The notes beneath the pieces are model-generated. The model had not been told where the DNA came from. It did no database searches and saw nothing but the letters and a program-made list of their open reading frames with translations. From the NCBI GenBank assembly GCA_963792585.1, contig CAWBWI010000003.1, positions 448,001 to 512,000 on the forward strand: DNA of 64,000 nucleotides. Reading direction: 5' to 3'. This stretch comes from Candidatus Eiseniibacteriota bacterium (GTDB lineage Bacteria > Eisenbacteria > RBG-16-71-46 > CAIMUX01 > VGJL01). A program made the position numbers and the translations under genes. Positions 731 through 21,498 of the stretch are shown here, piece by piece (position 1 is the stretch's first letter; the number at the start of each line of letters is the position of its first letter).

Positions 731-2890
731 ATGCATCGTGCCCTTCTGACCGCCATCCTGCTGCTGGCCGCCGTCCACATCACCGTTGCCGCGCCGGCGC
801 CCATGCCGCGCGTGAGCTGCCAGGGCCGTTTCGAGGCGACAAGTCCCGGGCCCTACGGTCTCGAGTGCTCATTCTCCGCGAGCGGGTTCGACCTTACAGG
901 GGCCACGCTCCTCGTGACCGATCCGGCGGGGATCGTCCATCGTCTCGAGGAGATCCCGGGGACGGCCTTCTTCGTCGGGGCCAACGGTAGGATCGCGGCC
1001 ATCGAGCGTGCCCCGATCGATGCGATCGCGAGCCGCCTGGTCATCTACGACCTCGCCGGTCGGAGGCTCTACGCGCGAGAAATCGATGCGCCCATCAATC
1101 CCGCCCTCGCCTCCGACGCCGCGGGCCTCGTTCTCCGCGATGCGACCGGCATCGTGCGGATCGATTTGGGCACCTTCGAGGAATCGCGTGTTCCGGCGCT
1201 GGATCTCTTCGCGGCGGGTCCGGCCGGCCGGTTGGCCGGCGTGCCCTTCGGCGAGGGGAATGATCTCCTCGTCTACGGCCCGAACGGACTCGAGTCGCGC
1301 ATCCCGCTCGACGCCAGGCCGCGCGGGATCGCCTTCAGCGCCGATGGGACGACGATCTACGCGATCGACGCCCGCGCGCTGTACCGAGTCGATTCCGCCT
1401 CCGCACGGCCCATCTACACGGCGCCGGAAGGCGCCGAGATCCAGGACATCCTCCTTTCGGGCACGACGATCTACCTCGGCGAGCGACGCATCGAAGCCGA
1501 AGCCTTTGCGGGATCCATGGTGGAACTCGACCCCAACGGCCGGATCGCACGCCGGATCGCGGGCCCCGTCGCGTCCGTCACCCGCGGGGTGAGCGATCCC
1601 GCCGGCAGTCGTGGGATCCCCTGGCCCCTGCTTCCCGACGCCCAGCACTCGGTCGGCAATACCTGGGGCGAGTACCAGAACTACGGCGGTACGCCCTACC
1701 CTCATCCGGGTTTCGACATCTTCGGAAGCGCCGGGCAGGCCGTCTACTCCGTCAGCTCCGGGGTCGTGAAGGCGGTTCTCACAACCGGCGGGGACCTCTA
1801 CTGGCGGGTTGCCATCGGCGACTCGCTCACGGCGGGGACGTGCAAAGGGTACCTCTATGCCCACCTCGTCCAGTCGAGCATCGCCGTCCACGCCGGCGAT
1901 CTGATCGTCCAGGGCCAGTACATCGGCAATCTGGTCCAGTGGCCGATCTACAACTTCACCCACACTCACTTCGCGCGTATCCAGCAGAGCGGCACGCAGT
2001 GGAACGGGAGCTGGCTGGCGGTCGACAATCCGCACACCACCTTCACGCACCAGAACGACACGCGCCCGCCCGTGTTCGAGCCGGCCCGTGGAACCGACCT
2101 TCTCGCATTCTGCAACAACGAGACCTCGACCTACCAGAGCCCGGCGTCTCTCCACGGCGCGGTCGACATCATCTGTCACGTCGGCGACCAGATCGAATCC
2201 ACCTGGGTCTGCTCGGTGCAGGAGTTGCGCTACACGATCTATCCCATCAACCGCCCACAGTACCCTGTCGTGAACAACAAACTCTCCGTGGTCTTCAACA
2301 TGACGATCGACTACTACGCCGGCGGATCGGATTACCTCTGGCTCAACACTCTTTTGTACAAGAAGGACTCGACCTGCAACACCCAAGGCGATTACGACTT
2401 TCGCGAGTTCTACCACATCTTGAGCAACTCCGACGGAGACGGTCTTTGCGAACAGACGGACGCGCTCGAGGCGTGGAACACGGCGGCGCTGCCCGACGGG
2501 CAGTATGTCGTCAAGGTGGTCGCGGTCGATGCCGCAGGGGGCGCGAAGGCCGACTCGATGGTCGTGGCGACGGTGAACGGGAATCCGTCGGATGTTTCCG
2601 ATGCGGCTGCTGCGCTCGGGGTCCGACCGAACGTCTTCCCGAATCCCTCGTCGGGGATCGTCTCGATCGCCTTCACCCTCGCGCAGGGAGGCCCGACCTC
2701 CTTGAGGATCTACGACCCGGCGGGGCGGCGCCTGCGGACCCTGGTCGATGCACGGCTCGATCCAGGCCTCCACACCATCAACTGGGATGGTCGCGACATT
2801 GAGGGGCATCGGGTCGGGTCGGGAAGCTACTCCTTCGTTCTGGACTCGCCTGGGGGCGCCGCGAACGGGAAGATCACCGTCTCGCGATGA
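731..2890 (+). CDS. Secreted protein: beta-propeller-like region + M23 peptidase-like domain + Ig-like domain + FlgD-Ig/T9SS-like CTD
   Basis: Signal peptide MHRALLTAILLLAAVHITVA. M23-type motifs HPGFD (HxxxD), YAHL and HTH. C-terminal FPNP...LRIYDPAGRRLRTL...WDGRD...GSY. Confidence 0.75.
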   Translation: MHRALLTAILLLAAVHITVAAPAPMPRVSCQGRFEATSPGPYGLECSFSASGFDLTGATLLVTDPAGIVHRLEEIPGTAFFVGANGRIAAIERAPIDAIASRLVIYDLAGRRLYAREIDAPINPALASDAAGLVLRDATGIVRIDLGTFEESRVPALDLFAAGPAGRLAGVPFGEGNDLLVYGPNGLESRIPLDARPRGIAFSADGTTIYAIDARALYRVDSASARPIYTAPEGAEIQDILLSGTTIYLGERRIEAEAFAGSMVELDPNGRIARRIAGPVASVTRGVSDPAGSRGIPWPLLPDAQHSVGNTWGEYQNYGGTPYPHPGFDIFGSAGQAVYSVSSGVVKAVLTTGGDLYWRVAIGDSLTAGTCKGYLYAHLVQSSIAVHAGDLIVQGQYIGNLVQWPIYNFTHTHFARIQQSGTQWNGSWLAVDNPHTTFTHQNDTRPPVFEPARGTDLLAFCNNETSTYQSPASLHGAVDIICHVGDQIESTWVCSVQELRYTIYPINRPQYPVVNNKLSVVFNMTIDYYAGGSDYLWLNTLLYKKDSTCNTQGDYDFREFYHILSNSDGDGLCEQTDALEAWNTAALPDGQYVVKVVAVDAAGGAKADSMVVATVNGNPSDVSDAAAALGVRPNVFPNPSSGIVSIAFTLAQGGPTSLRIYDPAGRRLRTLVDARLDPGLHTINWDGRDIEGHRVGSGSYSFVLDSPGGAANGKITVSR

Positions 2891-3552
2891 TCGGACGGCT
2901 GCTCGCCCGTCTGAAGCCCTCTTCGGGCGATCGATATGGGAGTTTCTCCGAGTTGCTGCGCAATGAGCGCGAGGGACGGGATTTCCTCCGCACCGTCATC
3001 GATCGTGACGCCCCCATCGCGATCGTCGCTCCTCACGGAGGCGGGCTCGAGGCGGGGACGTCGGAGATCGCGCGCGCGATCGCCGGCGGAGACCTGTCCC
3101 TCTACTGCTTCGAAGGGATCAAACTGCGGGGCAACGAAGTCCTGCACGTCACCAGCAGACGCTTCGACGACCCCGCATGCCTCGATCTGCTTTCGCGGGC
3201 GAGGACGGCGGTGACGATCCACGGTTGTTCGGGGCAAGACATGGGGATCCGCGTCGGCGGGCTGGACGCCGGTCTGAAGGCGGTGGTGACCCCGGCGTTG
3301 ATCGAGGCGGGGTTCGTTCCGCTCGAGGATGATGCTGTCTACTCCGGTCTCGATCCGGCGAACATATGCAATCGCTCCGCCACCGGCCGGGGACTCCAAC
3401 TCGAGCTGAGCCGGGGCCTGCGGGGCGTGATGTTCAGCGGGCTCGAGCGAACCGAGCGCGCCTACACGACGCCCGTCTTCCGGCGCTTCGTGACGGCGGT
3501 GCGGGGGGCACTCCTCTCGACGATCGACACGCCTGCGGCCCCGCCGGTCTGA
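2887..3552 (+). CDS. Poly-gamma-glutamate hydrolase family protein (PghP/YjqB, DUF867-like)
   Basis: Motifs APHGGGLEAGTSEIA, LHVTSRRFDDP, TIHG, NICN and GLQLELSRGLR. ATGA overlap with the upstream gene. Confidence 0.85.
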   Translation: MIGRLLARLKPSSGDRYGSFSELLRNEREGRDFLRTVIDRDAPIAIVAPHGGGLEAGTSEIARAIAGGDLSLYCFEGIKLRGNEVLHVTSRRFDDPACLDLLSRARTAVTIHGCSGQDMGIRVGGLDAGLKAVVTPALIEAGFVPLEDDAVYSGLDPANICNRSATGRGLQLELSRGLRGVMFSGLERTERAYTTPVFRRFVTAVRGALLSTIDTPAAPPV

Positions 3553-3670
3553 TGGCAAGGCTGCCGGCCGATATCGCGCATGGGGGTGCGAGCCTATTCT
3601 CAGGGTCTGATATAATTGTGACGGCCTCGTTTCAAGGATCCACGACCGCGGTCCAGCAGGAGTTGCCGGG

Positions 3671-5308
3671 ATGAATCGACCAGCATTCCTCGTCTTCGTC
3701 GTTCTCGCCCTTCTCCCGGCCAGCGCGCCGGCGGAGCCGACCCTCGCCTGGAGCGATCTCTTCGATGGGGGAGGACACTACACGGACATCGCCACCGCGG
3801 CGTTCACTGATCCGTCCGGCAACCTCTATGTAGGCGGCGAGAGCGCCGACGGCGTGCTTGGGGCCGATATGTCGATCCGCTGGATCGATCGCGCAACCGG
3901 GATCTCGATCTGGGAGACCCGGTACTCCGCCTTCGACGGGAACGACATGGCCCTCTCCGCACTGGAAGGAGACGGCTTCGGGAACATCATCGTCGCGGGT
4001 TATATCCGGGGCTGCGCGACCTGAGGCCACGGAGACGACATCATCGTCCTGAAGCTGGACGGTGAGACCGGGGAGTTTCTCTGGTCCCAGCACATCGCGA
4101 GCGGCACGGGCACGAACGAATCGGTTTTCGACCTCGCGTGCGACGCGGCCGGCAATGCATTCGTGACCGGGCGTTGGTACGTGGACGGCTCCGACGACAT
4201 TGTCACGATCAAACTCCGCGCATCGGACGGCGAGCCCCAGTGGCAGCGTCTCATCGGCGGCGGGTACGACGATCGTGGGTGGGCGATCGGCATCGGCCCG
4301 GACGAGAACCCGATGGTCACGGGGATTCTGTCCAACGGCGACGGAACGGCTCAGTTCATCACCTTCAAGCTGCGCAGCTCGGACGGATCGACCGTCTGGA
4401 GTCGCCCGATTCCCGGCGCGCTCGACAATGTGACAGAGAAGATCGGCTGGCTCGTCATATGCGACGACGGCGATGCGATCATGGGCAACCGCGTCTGGTC
4501 CTCCACGACGGGATACGACGTGATCCTGCAGCGATACGCCGCGGCCGACGGCGCCACGGTCTGGGAACGGCAGTACGGCTCGGCCGGAACCGTGGGCGAT
4601 GAGCCGCGGTGCATGGTCCGCGACGAGGCGGGGGACCTGCTCGTGGCGGGCGCGCGGCGGAGCGACTTCATGGCATTGAAGTTCAGTCGGGTCGATGGAT
4701 CCCTGCTCTGGTCGACCGACTACAACGGACCGGCGGGAAGCTACGATGCCGCGAACTGCGTGATCGAGGGACCGGGCGGCGCGGTCGTCGTCAGCGGATT
4801 CACATCGAGCCCGATCTACAGCTGGAACGTGAGCACGGTCGGCCTCGATCCGGTCGACGGCGCCCGAATGTGGGCCGCGCACCATGACGGCGGGGGAAAC
4901 GGGCGATCGGGCGAGGGGAAGGTCCTGGCCGCGGGGCCACTCGACGACATCTATGTCTGCGGCTACTTCTACGGGTTGAGCACCGACAGCGACATGATGT
5001 CGCTTCGCTATACCCTCGGACCGCCCGCCGGAGTGATCGAAAACGGCGTGGTCGCCCCGGTCTCGATCTACCCGAACCCTTCGGCCTCGGCGACGTGGAT
5101 CTCGCTCGATCTCGATTCCACTGAGTCCGTGCGTGTCGTCCTATACGATCCGGCGGGCCGGCGCGGGGCGATCCTGCACGAAGGAGTGCTCGATGCCGGC
5201 CGCCACCGATTCTCGTGGGATGACGGTGCCGCGGCTCCGGGTGTGTACCTCGTGCGGATCGAGACCTCCCGCGTGTCAGTGGTGAGGAAGTTGATCCGCC
5301 TTCCTTAG
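3671..5308 (+). CDS. Secreted beta-propeller (SBBP-like repeats) with T9SS-like CTD; in-frame TGA at 4022-4024, candidate selenocysteine
   Basis: ORFs 3671-4024 and 4163-5308 are in the same frame with a single TGA between them. The repeat pattern continues across it: GNIIVAGYIRGCAT*GHGDDIIVLKLDGETGEFLW. Signal peptide present; C-terminal YPNP...GVYLVRI...RKLIRLP. Confidence 0.75.
4041..4065 (+). promoter_or_regulatory. Candidate bacterial SECIS hairpin
   Basis: TCATCGTCC-TGAAGCT-GGACGGTGA forms a 9-bp stem with one G-U pair. The 7-nt loop has G at its second position and starts 25 nt after the UGA. Identified by eye. Confidence 0.45.
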
Positions 5309-5315
5309 GCGGCGA

Positions 5316-5663
5316 TCACCGCTGCTTCGCGTGCCACTCCTCGAGCACGGCGACCGCCCTGCGCAGGTGGGGGATCACGATGCTTCCGCCGACCGTGAGC
5401 GACACGCTGAAGACGTCGTACAACTCGGGATCGGTCACACCCAGATCCTTGCACTGGAGCAGGTGGTAGGTGATGCAGTCATCACACCGCAGGACCATCG
5501 ATGCGGCCAGCCCGAGCATCTCCTTGGTCTTGCGGTCGAGGGCGCCGGTCTCGTAGGTCAGAGTGTCGACCCCGAAGAAGCGCTTGATCGCTCTGTGGTC
5601 GGCGGCCATGATCTTCTCGTTCATCTTCGTCCGAAATTCCTCGAAATCCTCGATCCGTCCCAT
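5316..5663 (-). CDS. Carboxymuconolactone decarboxylase / AhpD-like protein
   Basis: GALDRKTKEMLGLAASMVLRCDDCITYH; CMD family with CxxC. Confidence 0.85.
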   Translation of the reverse strand: MGRIEDFEEFRTKMNEKIMAADHRAIKRFFGVDTLTYETGALDRKTKEMLGLAASMVLRCDDCITYHLLQCKDLGVTDPELYDVFSVSLTVGGSIVIPHLRRAVAVLEEWHAKQR

Positions 5664-16902: not shown

Positions 16903-17799
16903 TCAGGCGGCCGGTTCGAGCCGCACCCGCACGTTTCCGCCGAGCGTGTCGATATTGATCTCCGCCCCGCCGTCTCCGATCACGCACACTCCGCGTCGTC
17001 GAGCCTTGCCCTGCATCTCCCGCTCGGTCCCCGGCGGAAACTCCATCGCACCCCCAAGGGTGGAGACGTGGATCGTCATTGATGCCCCCTCCGCAACTTG
17101 CAGGCTGACCTCTCCACCCGCGGAGGAGACGGCGGCGCTCCCCTCACGCAGATCGAGGTCGGCGATCCTTACGCGTCCGCCCAGTGAGCGGAATCGGAAC
17201 GGAGACCGTGGACCCTGCACGCGAAGTTCTCCGCCCGCTGTGTCGAGCGTCATCGGGCCGGGGAACCGCTGGATCTCGAGATCCCCACCCAAGCAGCGAA
17301 CATCCAGACCCGCGAGATTCGGCGGCACCTCGAGCTCGAGGTTCCCCTTCGCCCAGGTCAGGACGTAGTCGCTACCGTTGCGGTGCACCTCGATCGCCTC
17401 GCCGCGAATGATGCGCGCTCCCCCCTCGCCCGCCGCCCGGAGGATCACGTTGCCGCCCTTCGACCCTCCGCCGAAGCTCACCCGCATCGCCTGCTGAACC
17501 CGCAGCCGGCTTCCGGCGGGGAGGTCGAAGCCGCCGGCTCCGATCTCGACGCTTTCCGCATCCGCCCGCGTTTCCTCGAAGACCCGCTGCGCGGTGCCGA
17601 GCGCGTCGTCGACAGCCCGGCGGACCGTCTCGCCGACTTCCTCCAGAATCTGGCCCATGGCCTCGCCGAAGCCGGCGGGCCGACCCGTTTCCGCGGCTTG
17701 TTCCCGCTCGTCAAGCGCGCGCAGCATCCGATCTCCCTCTTCCGGCGACACCTTTCCCTCGGCAATGAGTCTCAGGATCTCGATCCGTGCCTGCGACAT
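16903..17799 (-). CDS. SHOCT-like/YvlB-type N-terminus + DUF4097-like beta-helix repeat protein
   Basis: MSQARIEILRLIAEGKVSPEEGDRML. Repeated (T/S)(L/A)GG(D/E/R) motifs. GGAG RBS. Confidence 0.75.
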   Translation of the reverse strand: MSQARIEILRLIAEGKVSPEEGDRMLRALDEREQAAETGRPAGFGEAMGQILEEVGETVRRAVDDALGTAQRVFEETRADAESVEIGAGGFDLPAGSRLRVQQAMRVSFGGGSKGGNVILRAAGEGGARIIRGEAIEVHRNGSDYVLTWAKGNLELEVPPNLAGLDVRCLGGDLEIQRFPGPMTLDTAGGELRVQGPRSPFRFRSLGGRVRIADLDLREGSAAVSSAGGEVSLQVAEGASMTIHVSTLGGAMEFPPGTEREMQGKARRRGVCVIGDGGAEINIDTLGGNVRVRLEPAA

Positions 17800-18072
17800 G
17801 ATCTCCCCTCCGCGATCCCCGCGATTGACTTCGACCCGCGGGGATCCTATCATCGAGAGCGGCGAATCCACAGGGCCGGGACGGGCGGAGATTCCGTGCG
17901 CCCGACCCCTCATCAGCGGCCGACACCGTCGATGGACGGCGCCAGGAATGGGTCCCCCCCCATTGGTACGTGCGGATCTCGCGTATTCCGTGAACCTATT
18001 TGCGCGGGGTTCCGTGATGCGAGGGCGAGCGCGCCCCCCCATTCGAGCCATGGGACAAGGAGGCCGATTCCC

Positions 18073-21000
18073 ATGAAAGCAAAGGCGTTCCGTCTCCAGT
18101 TCTTGCTGCTTCCAACGATTCTGCTCGCGATCTCGGGGAACGCGATCGCATCGCACGCCCCGAGCCGTTCCGTGCTTGGCAATCAGTATCTCGCCCCGCA
18201 GGCGACCGATCTGCGACAACCGGATCGGTCCGGGGTTCCGACGAGATCCGACACGACCTGGTTCGGCGGCTACACGATCGTGGGCGGCGAGTACCACGCC
18301 CTCTCCGGACCGAACAAACAGGACGTCATGTGGACCTTCGACCGCGGGATCGGTCCCCACGGGGACCCGAACCGGATCGAGGATGGCGAAGGGTGGCGGT
18401 CGATCGACGAGACCGCCAACGACCAGACCTTCTTCCGGCGGATCGACGGCACACTCGATCTCGGCGATGGCGTCGCGCCCCCGATCATCACGGGCCAGGG
18501 CAGTCTGTGGGTCGGCGCGGACGCGCCACAAGCCGCCGCCTTCTGCTGGATATGCGGCCCGGGGTATGGAAACGACTGGTGCCAGAGAATCACGACCGAG
18601 CCGCTCGCCTACGACGGGTCGGGGGCGGTCACCCTCTCCTTCAAGTATTTCAGCGACAGTGAGCAGTGCTTCGATGGGACGCAGGTCTACCTGAAGCGCG
18701 CGGACAATACCGAACTGCTGCTCAACCCATATCCGGGCGACTGCCCGGAGAATGTCTGGCATGACGGCTTCACCGGAACGATCGGGAGCGCCTCGGCCCC
18801 CGCGACCTACACGCGCGTCGTGACCGCCGGGGAGATCGGCGCGGCCCAGTCCATCCGCTTCGTTATCGAGTTCACCTCGGACGACGGTTGGTCCGACGAG
18901 GACGGCGAGTTCTGCGAGACCTACGGTCCCTTCGGCGCGGACGATGTGACGATCGACGGCGGGGGAATCCATGCGATCCAGGATTTCGAGACGGGCATCA
19001 CCCCGTGGGTCGCCTCATTCTGTCCCGGGATCGGCAGCTTCGCGGGCATTGCCCCCCTTGGCTGCTATGGGTATATCGATCCCTGCCAGTGCCGCCTCTC
19101 AGGGAACGTCCTCGAGATGCACGAGGGAGACTGCCCCGCTGGGACCCATCCCCAAGGACAGCTCGAGTCGATCGAAAGCCCGATCTGCGACATCGGTTCG
19201 GGAGAACCGCACAGCATCCTGCTCGACTTCGACATGTTCGCGGACATGCCGTTCGAGGATGGGGTCCTGTTTCGCGTGATGTGGAAGTACTACCCGTGGA
19301 CTTGCCCCGTGACGGGCGCGACCGGCTGGTCGCCCGCCATGGGGAATACTTTCGAATCCACCGGTTCCACGCCGGGTTGTTTCAGTCTGCGCTACTCCGC
19401 GACCGGCGGACCGAACGGCGTGCCCATCCCCCAGACCTCGCAGAAGGTGAAGGCGATCATCGAGCTGGTCTCGGACTGCTCGGCCTTCACCATCGATCCC
19501 TGTTCCGGCGAGACGAACGCGAGCCCCCTGTTCGACAACATCGCCGTCGGCGCGACGGCAGGCGTGTACGCACCGATCGTCGCGCTCGACACCGGCTGCG
19601 CGTTCCAGGACGTCGGATCGTACCCGTCCACGGCCTTCGATCCGCGCGGGACCGGTCCGGCCAACGTGACATTCGACAAGTACCTGGACAACCCGTCGAA
19701 ACCACGCCTCTGCGGCGATAGCCTCGTCGTGGCCGGCCCCCTGCCGTCCCCCACCGATCCGAACACCCGCTGGGAGGCGCGGCTCTGGTGGCGGGTGGCG
19801 CGCAGGGCGGTCTTCAACGCGGACAACAACAACGGGGTCCCAACGCGGTACAAGATCTGGCGTGACCGGGTCGCGGACGGTCGCGCGATCGACCGCGTCT
19901 ACAGGCCGGAGTTCACCTTCGGCTGGATGGACTCCGCCCAGATCGGATCTAACCCCAGAAAGGACAAGTTCATCTCCTCATTCCGCGAGGACGACGACGA
20001 TTTCGTAAGCGAGTCGAGTCCCGAGAACGAGATGATCTGGGACGACGTCCTTTATCCGGGGACCCGGATCGAGTACTTCGTCACGTCGAACTACAGAAAC
20101 AGCCCGGCACTGCTCTACTACTATCCCGACACCACGGGTGGGAATCTCCTCGAGTTCGAGGTCCTGCCCGGGCTCCTTACGGCGAACGTGCCGGGGTGCG
20201 GGGGGACGGGCTTCAATTACTGCGCCTTCATGCCGGCCACGCTCTACATTGACGCTTTCAACGCCGGCGCACAGATCTTCATCGAGAATGCCCTCCGCAC
20301 CGTGCTCAATGGGGAGCCGGTCTGCATGAACCCGATGGGGTGCCCGATTCCGGCCGATCGGAACTGGGACCGGTACGACTACGCGGACGCCGCCTCGAGT
20401 TGGGTCGCGCCCTTCGGCCGCGGAGCGATCGCGGGGAGCAACAACGGCATGACCCTGCAGCAGATCCTCGGCTATCGGACGATCCTCGTGAACACAGGGT
20501 CCTACACCAGCGGTGCGATGGACGACAAGGACTTCGCCCTGTTCGACCAGTGGCTGGTCACTCCCTTGTGCGAGTCGAACGTGAACCGGCAGGCGTTTCT
20601 CATGAACGGGGACGGAGTGGGTCAAGTCCTGGAGAACTTCCCCTCCACCGGCGTGCCCTTGATGCGCAACACGCTCGGCGCCGCACTCTTCTGCGACGCG
20701 TTCAACGGTGCGTCGAGCGACCCCGACTGCGGTCCGATCGACACGTCGTATTGCGTCCGCCTTCTTCCTCCTGACGCCGCCGTTTTCGGATCCACGGAGG
20801 CGATCGATGCCTTCGGGAACGGTTGTCCCAGTCTCTACGGCTTCAACGTCCTCTCTCCCAACGGCACGGGAGTGGGCAACCGCGGCTACTGGAGCGAGGA
20901 AGGTCCGAAGCAGATGGACTTCTCGCAGATTGCGAACGAGGACCTCTCCACAGGCGCGAACTACCGGACCGTGCTCGATGGTGTGAGCTGGCACCACATG

Positions 21001-21498
21001 ACGCTGCGCAACAGCGGCGGGCAGGGGAGCGACCGATGCCCGCGCGACCTCCCCTCGGTCTCCGGGGCGATCGCCGCGGAGATGGGCTCGGCGCTGCGAT
21101 GGGCCTACGACGCGCAGACGAACAACGGGATCCCGAAGCTCACAAGCGCGGAAGTGCTCGCGACATGTCAGTCTACGTGGACTCTAGGGGGCGCGGGGGC
21201 CGAAGATGCCGCCGACGTCCGGGTCAACCGTCTCTGGCAGAACGATCCGAACCCCTTCAATCCACGCACGACGATCAAGTACAGCCTGGCCCGAAGCGGC
21301 GCCGTGAAGATCCTCGTCTATGACGTGAGCGGGCGGCTCGTCCGCACGCTCATCGATGCGAAGGAGGAGGCCGGGGCGCATGCGGCGGTATGGGACGGGA
21401 CGAACGACCGGGGCGACAAGGCCGGGTCCGGAGTCTACTGGGTTCAGATGCGCGTCGCCGACTTCGTCTCCAACAAGAAGATGGTTATCTTGAAATAG
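18073..21498 (+). CDS. Large (1141 aa) Cys-rich secreted protein with FlgD-Ig CTD
   Basis: GGAGG RBS, signal peptide, roughly 29 Cys. C-terminal QNDPNPFNPRTTIKY...VYDVSGRLVRTL...WDGTND...SGVY...KKMVILK. Confidence 0.8.
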   Translation: MKAKAFRLQFLLLPTILLAISGNAIASHAPSRSVLGNQYLAPQATDLRQPDRSGVPTRSDTTWFGGYTIVGGEYHALSGPNKQDVMWTFDRGIGPHGDPNRIEDGEGWRSIDETANDQTFFRRIDGTLDLGDGVAPPIITGQGSLWVGADAPQAAAFCWICGPGYGNDWCQRITTEPLAYDGSGAVTLSFKYFSDSEQCFDGTQVYLKRADNTELLLNPYPGDCPENVWHDGFTGTIGSASAPATYTRVVTAGEIGAAQSIRFVIEFTSDDGWSDEDGEFCETYGPFGADDVTIDGGGIHAIQDFETGITPWVASFCPGIGSFAGIAPLGCYGYIDPCQCRLSGNVLEMHEGDCPAGTHPQGQLESIESPICDIGSGEPHSILLDFDMFADMPFEDGVLFRVMWKYYPWTCPVTGATGWSPAMGNTFESTGSTPGCFSLRYSATGGPNGVPIPQTSQKVKAIIELVSDCSAFTIDPCSGETNASPLFDNIAVGATAGVYAPIVALDTGCAFQDVGSYPSTAFDPRGTGPANVTFDKYLDNPSKPRLCGDSLVVAGPLPSPTDPNTRWEARLWWRVARRAVFNADNNNGVPTRYKIWRDRVADGRAIDRVYRPEFTFGWMDSAQIGSNPRKDKFISSFREDDDDFVSESSPENEMIWDDVLYPGTRIEYFVTSNYRNSPALLYYYPDTTGGNLLEFEVLPGLLTANVPGCGGTGFNYCAFMPATLYIDAFNAGAQIFIENALRTVLNGEPVCMNPMGCPIPADRNWDRYDYADAASSWVAPFGRGAIAGSNNGMTLQQILGYRTILVNTGSYTSGAMDDKDFALFDQWLVTPLCESNVNRQAFLMNGDGVGQVLENFPSTGVPLMRNTLGAALFCDAFNGASSDPDCGPIDTSYCVRLLPPDAAVFGSTEAIDAFGNGCPSLYGFNVLSPNGTGVGNRGYWSEEGPKQMDFSQIANEDLSTGANYRTVLDGVSWHHMTLRNSGGQGSDRCPRDLPSVSGAIAAEMGSALRWAYDAQTNNGIPKLTSAEVLATCQSTWTLGGAGAEDAADVRVNRLWQNDPNPFNPRTTIKYSLARSGAVKILVYDVSGRLVRTLIDAKEEAGAHAAVWDGTNDRGDKAGSGVYWVQMRVADFVSNKKMVILK

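Follow-up and report, generated by a model that had tools for sequence, protein, structure and literature searches.

A predicted exported beta-propeller gene with a conserved in-frame TGA, very likely selenocysteine, and a probable displaced two-hairpin SECIS

The window analysed here (the whole 64,000-nucleotide stretch of DNA) carries at 3671-5308 of the forward strand a reading frame of 545 codons whose sole internal stop is a TGA at codon 118 (4022-4024), in the context GYIRG-C-A-T-*-GHGDDIIVLKLD. An earlier note on this DNA had described a single frame broken by one TGA at codon 118 of 545, with a Cys three residues before it (C-x-x-TGA), and both observations were reproduced by translation of 3671-5308. 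Open reading frame calling with table 11 divided the same region into two ORFs, 3671-4024 and 4163-5308. No promoter- or terminator-like sites were seen in 3450-5500. The features of the locus are:

3658..3662, + strand: AGGAG, ribosome-binding-site-like, 8 nt 5' of the ATG (from the sequence)
3671..5308, + strand: gene of 545 codons read through one TGA, terminal TAG (translation; 11 full-length orthologs at 43-50% identity)
3671..3733, + strand: likely Sec-pathway signal peptide, residues 1-21 (translation judged by eye; N-termini of 35 fragments similar)
3740..5014, + strand: predicted eight-bladed beta-propeller, residues 24-448, with SBBP/PQQ_2-like blades (AlphaFold2, Pfam, fold matches)
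4013..4015, + strand: Cys115 of the CxxU motif (Cys in 58/58 family sequences spanning the position)
4022..4024, + strand: in-frame TGA, likely Sec118, in the b-c loop of blade 2 (TGA in 27/27 distinct loci)
4041..4065, + strand: proximal mRNA hairpin, 8-9 bp with a 7-nt loop, likely a spacer and not the SelB site
4066..4086, + strand: distal mRNA hairpin, 9 bp, likely the SelB-binding SECIS (99.6% of cells paired)
5060..5299, + strand: FlgD-Ig / T9SS type A sorting-like C-terminal domain, residues 464-543 (TIGR04183, FlgD_ig, model)

In the window this gene is flanked by genes for an M23 peptidase with a FlgD-like tail (707-2890), a poly-gamma-glutamate hydrolase (2887-3552) and a convergent CMD/AhpD-family protein (5316-5663), and 17383-21498 encodes a 1371-residue protein with the same tail as the propeller gene. 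None of the three adjoining genes recurs beside the orthologs. Clustering of the unannotated neighbour proteins revealed no conserved neighbourhood, as each neighbour family was limited to three loci at most, with the exception of proteins that share the tail.

Conservation of the internal TGA was surveyed in 60 related genomes, where matches at E <= 1e-20 were obtained in 14 genomes at 15 places. These comprised 11 close orthologs (44-52% identity) with one TGA apiece, in each case the same codon after C-x-x, and four distant propellers (29-31% identity) with none. A phylum profile search of 206 genomes returned the same 12 TGA genes, our own included, at approximately 770-870 bits, as well as two stop-free paralogues at about 210 bits. 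The source genome (G000) itself contains a full-length paralogue with 23% identity, at G000:C3:1066911-1068485 (-). A further 28 loci, 14 from metagenomes and 14 from genomes, were obtained by pattern scans, and the site was covered in 27 of them (14 metagenome, 13 genome), all 27 with TGA; the patterns came from the conserved motif region and the scans are therefore biased towards the TGA form, diverged Cys forms not being findable by them. The 28th locus (L057, Myxococcota) was a generic propeller lacking Cys or TGA in the loop and was set aside. TGA was thus found in 39/39 ortholog loci spanning the site, or 27/27 distinct loci once 12 had been removed by eye as duplicates, and the assorted non-Cys residues that the earlier note had named as a refutation of its proposal were not seen.

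Database proteins provided a view of the site that is independent of the scan patterns. C-x-x forms the C-terminus of all 35 proteins that match the upstream ORF. None of the 47 close database homologues begins before profile position 118; their 'starts' scatter over positions 118-264, with no conserved start among them. A phmmer search of 1.84 billion representatives gave no full-length close relative in its best 150. A single-protein query of genome contigs gave no match and an alignment query did. The earlier note had also raised sequencing error at the TGA, on which contigs from two other samples bear: X4 has 34 differences over 761 nt and keeps the TGA, none of the 32 differences listed falling in 4001-4088, and X1 keeps the TGA with one unlisted change, C>G, both being contigs of related strains and not raw reads of the source. 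Contigs from two RNA runs (X16 and X18) also span the codon; their differences are partly unlisted and they prove neither expression nor the codon. Judged from these sequences, conservation of the TGA is not dependent on the source assembly alone.

It is important to note that annotation pipelines call two ORFs here, as would be expected if the TGA were a true stop or an error, that is, a nonsense allele, a sequencing artefact or the end of a 117-residue peptide followed by a separately started propeller. Indel errors elsewhere in the assembly are also possible, since a sprA-like gene at G000:C4:17198-21309 (-) gave six separate matches spread across several open frames, which suggests either such errors or a decayed gene. 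We consider a true stop or error very improbable, as the codon is always TGA and never TAA or TAG in 27/27 loci across several families, the downstream 'starts' are scattered and unconserved, and the TGA is kept in the X1 and X4 contigs from other samples. A split at this codon would moreover halve blade 2 and separate the signal peptide from the sorting domain.

Of the two outcomes that had been anticipated for relatives, a conserved TGA or a Cys in its place, only the first was observed. No Cys ortholog was found in the 206-genome profile search, among the database homologues or in phmmer's best 150 representatives, so that the Sec/Cys pairing by which selenoproteins are commonly tested is missing from this family; nearly all selenoproteins have Cys orthologs according to the accessible part of PMC13188914. 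Cys was present at the two aligned positions in 4 and 2 of 184 other proteins, and CxxC in the equivalent loop was confined to P0171 and P0105, distant repeat-protein singletons. Both are large SBBP-repeat proteins with CxxC in the b-c loop of one blade (CLSC and CGNC, around residues 612 and 324, respectively), which possibly represent independent loop origins or remote Cys counterparts.

Machinery for selenocysteine insertion, on which the earlier proposal depended, was located in the source genome, where selA, selB, selD and tRNA-Sec are all present, the tRNA-Sec scoring above the Rfam cut-off and the selD gene itself containing an in-frame TGA. The ortholog genomes possess tRNA-Sec in 11/11 cases and selA in 10/11 (not found in G058, which is 81% complete), selA co-occurrence being non-discriminating because 52 of 54 relatives tested have this gene. 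Wholesale recoding is excluded, since TGA is the commonest stop of the genome (372/725 long ORFs) and 4/12 orthologs terminate in TGA. A more restricted alternative is that, under an alternative code or with a suppressor tRNA, the TGA would specify Trp, Gly or Cys, and a Cys reading would generate a plausible CxxC. There is very little probability in this alternative, given the predominance of TGA as a stop, the tRNA-Sec structure of the sole UCA-anticodon tRNA found, and the occurrence of one internal TGA per gene alongside many TGG codons. Long ARAGORN calls for tRNA-Cys(GCA) and tRNA-Trp(CCA) had poor folds, carried no UCA anticodon and were set aside. From the sequence evidence, the internal TGA is very likely decoded as selenocysteine.

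The region immediately 3' of the UGA has a consensus fold of two abutting hairpins (4041/2-4064/5 and 4066-4086), and in 27 sequences, which are related and not independent, 98.7% of cells were paired across both in comparison to 37-58% when the pairing was slid. Only the first of these hairpins was described in the earlier note; the second, at 4066-4086, is the better conserved. The proximal hairpin has the loop UGAAGCU, 25 nt 3' of the UGA, and although single-sequence folding was not significant (z -1.0 to -2.0), 97.7% of its cells were paired in the 27 relatives. It also covaries, with an A-U/G-C swap at one pair in 11/27 that couples an Ile/Val change with a Gly wobble, and cells changed on both sides were as frequent in 0/500 shuffles. 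Its loop showed G[G/U] in 0/27 and any G at the first two positions in 13/27, and this G falls at an unconstrained wobble position of a Leu codon (G, C or T).

The distal hairpin presents a G-[G/U]-Y loop at 4075-4077, closed by A-U, with G[G/U] in 27/27 and always 50 nt from the UGA. Its 99.6% paired cells include one double change (86/500 shuffles as high), and this covariation is not significant because the hairpin is too invariant. Codon identity at shared residues reached its peak of 0.84 in codons 131-140, in comparison to 0.28-0.64 outside codons 111-140. The distal-loop codon was T-ending in 27/27 (GTT 21, TTT 4, TCT 2) and was preceded by a Glu codon that is GAG in 27/27; in the source genome GTT, TTT and TCT make up 9%, 8% and 4% of the codon use of their amino acids. 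On these sequences, support for the distal hairpin is from codon fixation rather than covariation. The stem contains G-U pairs and would therefore function on the sense strand. Of 3000 TGA triplets taken at random, 10 had a comparable distal hairpin after them.

The published bSECIS loop pattern is N1-G[G/U]-N-N2 at a spacing of 16-37 nt (PMC13188914, accessible part). The distal loop, A-G-[G/U]-Y-U, fits that pattern, and its spacing of 50 nt, roughly double the usual distance, falls outside the range; a G[G/U] loop at the canonical 16-37 nt was found in 0/27 loci. Fourteen control genes, probable selenoproteins of the same genome, all carried a G[G/U] loop at 16-26 nt and lacked a distal one, a comparison that is partly circular because the controls were picked from our own scan, in part for showing hairpins. 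A family cut-off was exceeded by just two of these controls, SelD and the TUGYCR protein, and most other labels come from motifs. In SelB, winged-helix domains 2 and 3 are joined by a hinge that is stated to accommodate differences in spacing (PMC4605307, accessible part).

This can be interpreted as SelB probably binding the distal loop, with the proximal hairpin looping out the extra distance. Alternatively, SelB would bind the proximal hairpin as a SECIS whose loop is atypical, and the distal hairpin would serve as an accessory pause or stabilizing element. Such an arrangement would place the SECIS at the canonical 25 nt in the hairpin with the clearest compensatory change (A-U/G-C in 11/27, 0/500 shuffles) and with G within the first two loop positions in 13/27. 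We regard it as unlikely, since that G is a free wobble, G[G/U] occurs in the proximal loop in 0/27 but in the distal loop in 27/27 with fixed rare codons, and 14/14 control genes of the genome use G[G/U] loops. The hairpin at 4041-4065 that was originally proposed as SECIS-like therefore exists, is conserved and covaries, but the SelB loop is more likely that of 4066-4086.

Our scan of the source genome identified further candidates. Eight probable selenoprotein genes with canonical hairpins were located at G000:C1:242644 (-), C3:1081711 (-), C2:244034 (-), C4:299833 (+), C1:1644338 (+), C1:1449638 (+), C3:350819 (-) and C6:270789 (-), including a TUGYCR redoxin (NF053656, above cut-off) and TlpA-like genes, and the group contains what we take, from their motifs, to be rhodanese, Prx, AhpD, HesB and redoxin genes. 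L089 at G000:C1:1777540 (-) and L090 at G000:C5:107461 (+) are two short paralogues whose N-termini resemble signal peptides and whose in-frame TGA codons coincide in position (PGxGV[S/G]-U), each with a hairpin at 20 nt that bears a GGUC loop. They gave no NCBIfam match and are possibly another uncatalogued selenoprotein family. At G000:C6:198400 (+), L097 combines a signal-peptide-like start, GGCG-TGA and a canonical hairpin at 18 nt, followed by a 313-residue beta-barrel-looking protein with no NCBIfam match, and is a candidate CxU selenoprotein. Two long UxxC proteins predicted to be exported, L086 at G000:C6:900851 (-) and L087 at C6:968110 (-), weakly resemble NF045500 below its cut-off, and L087 carries a T9SS tail. 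L091 at G000:C2:49171 (+) has an in-frame TGA (RT-U-TCGG) flanked on either side by sequence that looks coding, and no clear hairpin. The genome is probably rich in selenoproteins and seems to export several of them.

The read-through protein was modelled with AlphaFold2 from a 12-row alignment in which Cys stood in for Sec, giving a mean pLDDT of 83.9 and a propeller at residues 24-448 (32 strands), a linker and an Ig-like tail at 464-543. The eight-bladed model spans the TGA, in agreement with the earlier view that the blades continue through the stop. In this model the CxxU motif is predicted to sit on an exposed loop of the propeller, the b-c loop of blade 2 (loop 114-122, pLDDT about 67). 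Fold matches were generic (WD40 propellers Z 36, BamB Z 32, CylK Z 31) and therefore allow no functional transfer, and a PDB sequence search returned weak matches to FlgD, tetrathionate hydrolase and a single T9SS-tail protein. Pfam assigned PQQ_2 in 10/12, SBBP in 5/12 and FlgD_ig in 11/12 family members. Across 96 family sequences and fragments, C115 was invariant in the 58/58 covering the position, and no other Cys was invariant. Beyond the blade motif, R168, W204, W260, W276, Y358, W385 and Y432 were conserved in the family, at strand ends. The topology of a propeller determines which strand ends share a face, and from this topology and the secondary structure these seven residues would face the same side as the CxxU loop.

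Export of the protein is suggested by both termini. The signal peptide proposed upstream of the TGA is likely as judged by eye, from a hydrophobic stretch and an A-x-A. A secretion domain had likewise been placed downstream of the TGA, and the C-terminal tail indeed matched TIGR04183 at 33.6 bits against a cut-off of 23, with PF18962 below its cut-off and a weak Pfam FlgD_ig match in the query protein. The source genome contains eight PorV-family genes and a PorU sortase above cut-off, as well as a fragmented SprA-like gene below cut-off, and dozens of its proteins carry the same tail.

In summary, we have high confidence that the locus is one gene, with a TGA that is very likely Sec, encoding a predicted exported propeller whose Cys-x-x-Sec loop is likely to perform thiol/selenol exchange at the surface. 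Every relative found retains the TGA, a Cys three codons 5' of it and the pair of adjoining hairpins, and the genome contains selA, selB, selD and tRNA-Sec. SelB would almost certainly deliver Sec-tRNA to the UGA at 4022-4024, and would probably do so while bound to the distal G[G/U] loop 50 nt downstream, where the proximal hairpin would remove 23-25 nt from the path and leave an effective distance of about 27-30 nt, within the usual 16-37 nt. The signal peptide would then direct inner membrane crossing and the C-terminal domain a type IX-like export, which we consider quite likely. The last step, to which we assign roughly equal chances of being right or wrong, is that Cys115 and Sec118 would cycle between selenolate/thiol and selenenylsulfide at the rim of the propeller top face, where aromatic and charged side chains conserved specifically in this family would hold a substrate that carries a disulfide or sulfur. 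Of the redox-active Sec loop on an exported propeller that had been proposed, the Sec, the propeller and the tail are supported, and redox activity stays conjectural.

Two other roles for the loop were weighed. If the protein were a surface receptor or scavenger that binds soft metals or metalloids (Hg, Cu, As), and not a redox catalyst, the exposed C-x-G-U-G-H-G-D-D loop would offer several ligands; the protein contains no second invariant Cys elsewhere, and the catalogue includes several selenoproteins with links to metals (PMC13188914, Table 1, accessible part). The residue after Sec is however variable (His 16, Gln 6, Glu 3, Ser 1, Ala 1; n=27), the Asp pair belongs to the generic blade motif and no neighbour family recurs across loci, making a metal site doubtful. 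Less probable still is a permanent Cys115-Sec118 selenenylsulfide whose sole role is to stiffen a binding loop, in a propeller that acts as a surface adhesin or binds a ligand. Predicted export to an oxidizing compartment, the closeness of the fold to binding scaffolds (WD40, BamB) and the occasional CxxC in the same loop of distant repeat proteins are consistent with a structural bond, but Cys could make such a bond, yet 27 distinct loci and 35 fragments yielded no Cys form, and the pair of RNA hairpins has been kept at the expense of protein sequence. The motif and residue model, the export genes and the lack of a conserved neighbourhood lead us to favour, at about an even chance, a stand-alone surface protein whose Cys/Sec pair exchanges on a top-face ligand.

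The family may, with somewhat better than even probability, represent surface propeller selenoenzymes that exist only as Sec forms and use a two-hairpin SECIS, the spacer hairpin bringing the 50-nt loop within reach of the ribosome. If so, this SECIS would be a bacterial architecture outside the current model, and neither standard discovery route would detect the family, as no Cys ortholog was found and the SECIS loop lies outside 16-37 nt; this would explain its being missed by SECIS-based and Cys/Sec-pair searches and would imply that more selenoproteins are hidden. Protein databases hold the propeller family cut in two, and the bacterial selenoproteome would gain a fold and a location, a predicted exported beta-propeller. 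The hosts are uncultured bacteria, with named relatives labelled Candidatus Eisenbacteria and Krumholzibacteria. The tandem hairpin would provide a direct test of SelB reach, with bearing on selenoprotein prediction and on the placement of Sec in designed proteins, where the codons right after the UGA would be left free.

Comparison with catalogued families placed the architecture outside the selenoprotein families checked, as had been suspected from the sequence: NCBIfam 20.0 gave seven matches at E <= 1 with no selenoprotein family among them, and the accessible part of the 119-family selenoprotein catalogue of 2026 (PMC13188914) does not list the propeller family or any propeller entry. In BSepDB (PMC13326102), no propeller, T9SS or Eisenbacteria term appears in one supplement, which is possibly incomplete. 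Canonical SECIS elements are given for 87.4% of BSepDB entries in the accessible part of that source, so non-canonical cases are known. No description was found in full-text literature, and an unnamed listing is possible in subscription papers or a groundwater deep-Sep survey. We conclude that this is very likely an uncatalogued family of predicted exported propeller selenoproteins, and that its SECIS is probably a displaced, two-hairpin one.

Among characterized systems, the SelB/bSECIS genes (archetype E. coli fdhF) share with the propeller gene an in-frame UGA, a hairpin within the ORF with an N1-G[G/U]-N-N2 loop, and selA/B/C/D; in the published model (PMC13188914, Fig. 2A, accessible part) the loop lies at 16-37 nt, in contrast to 50 nt and an extra abutting hairpin here. 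CxxU is common to the propeller family and to selenoproteins that include SelW-like, AhpD-like, GrdA and BtuF-like proteins and the FCYXU TonB-dependent receptor (NF049945), with names as in PMC13188914, Table 1; some of these are extracytoplasmic. These have no sequence match to the propeller protein, no entry of the accessible table is named a propeller, and Cys orthologs are described in that review as nearly universal among selenoproteins, whereas none was found for the propeller family. SBBP-repeat (PF06739)/PQQ_2 T9SS cargo proteins share the blade motif, the eight-bladed fold and the C-terminal sorting domain at 25-35% identity, but differ from the propeller family in that their frames are free of internal stops and the loop lacks a conserved Cys. 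The Omp28-related selenoprotein NF045500 (GOS_C), a catalogued family, has a thioredoxin-like UxxC domain unrelated to the propeller. Its weak relative L087 carries the same T9SS-type tail, so that selenoprotein export through such a tail would not be unique to the propeller.
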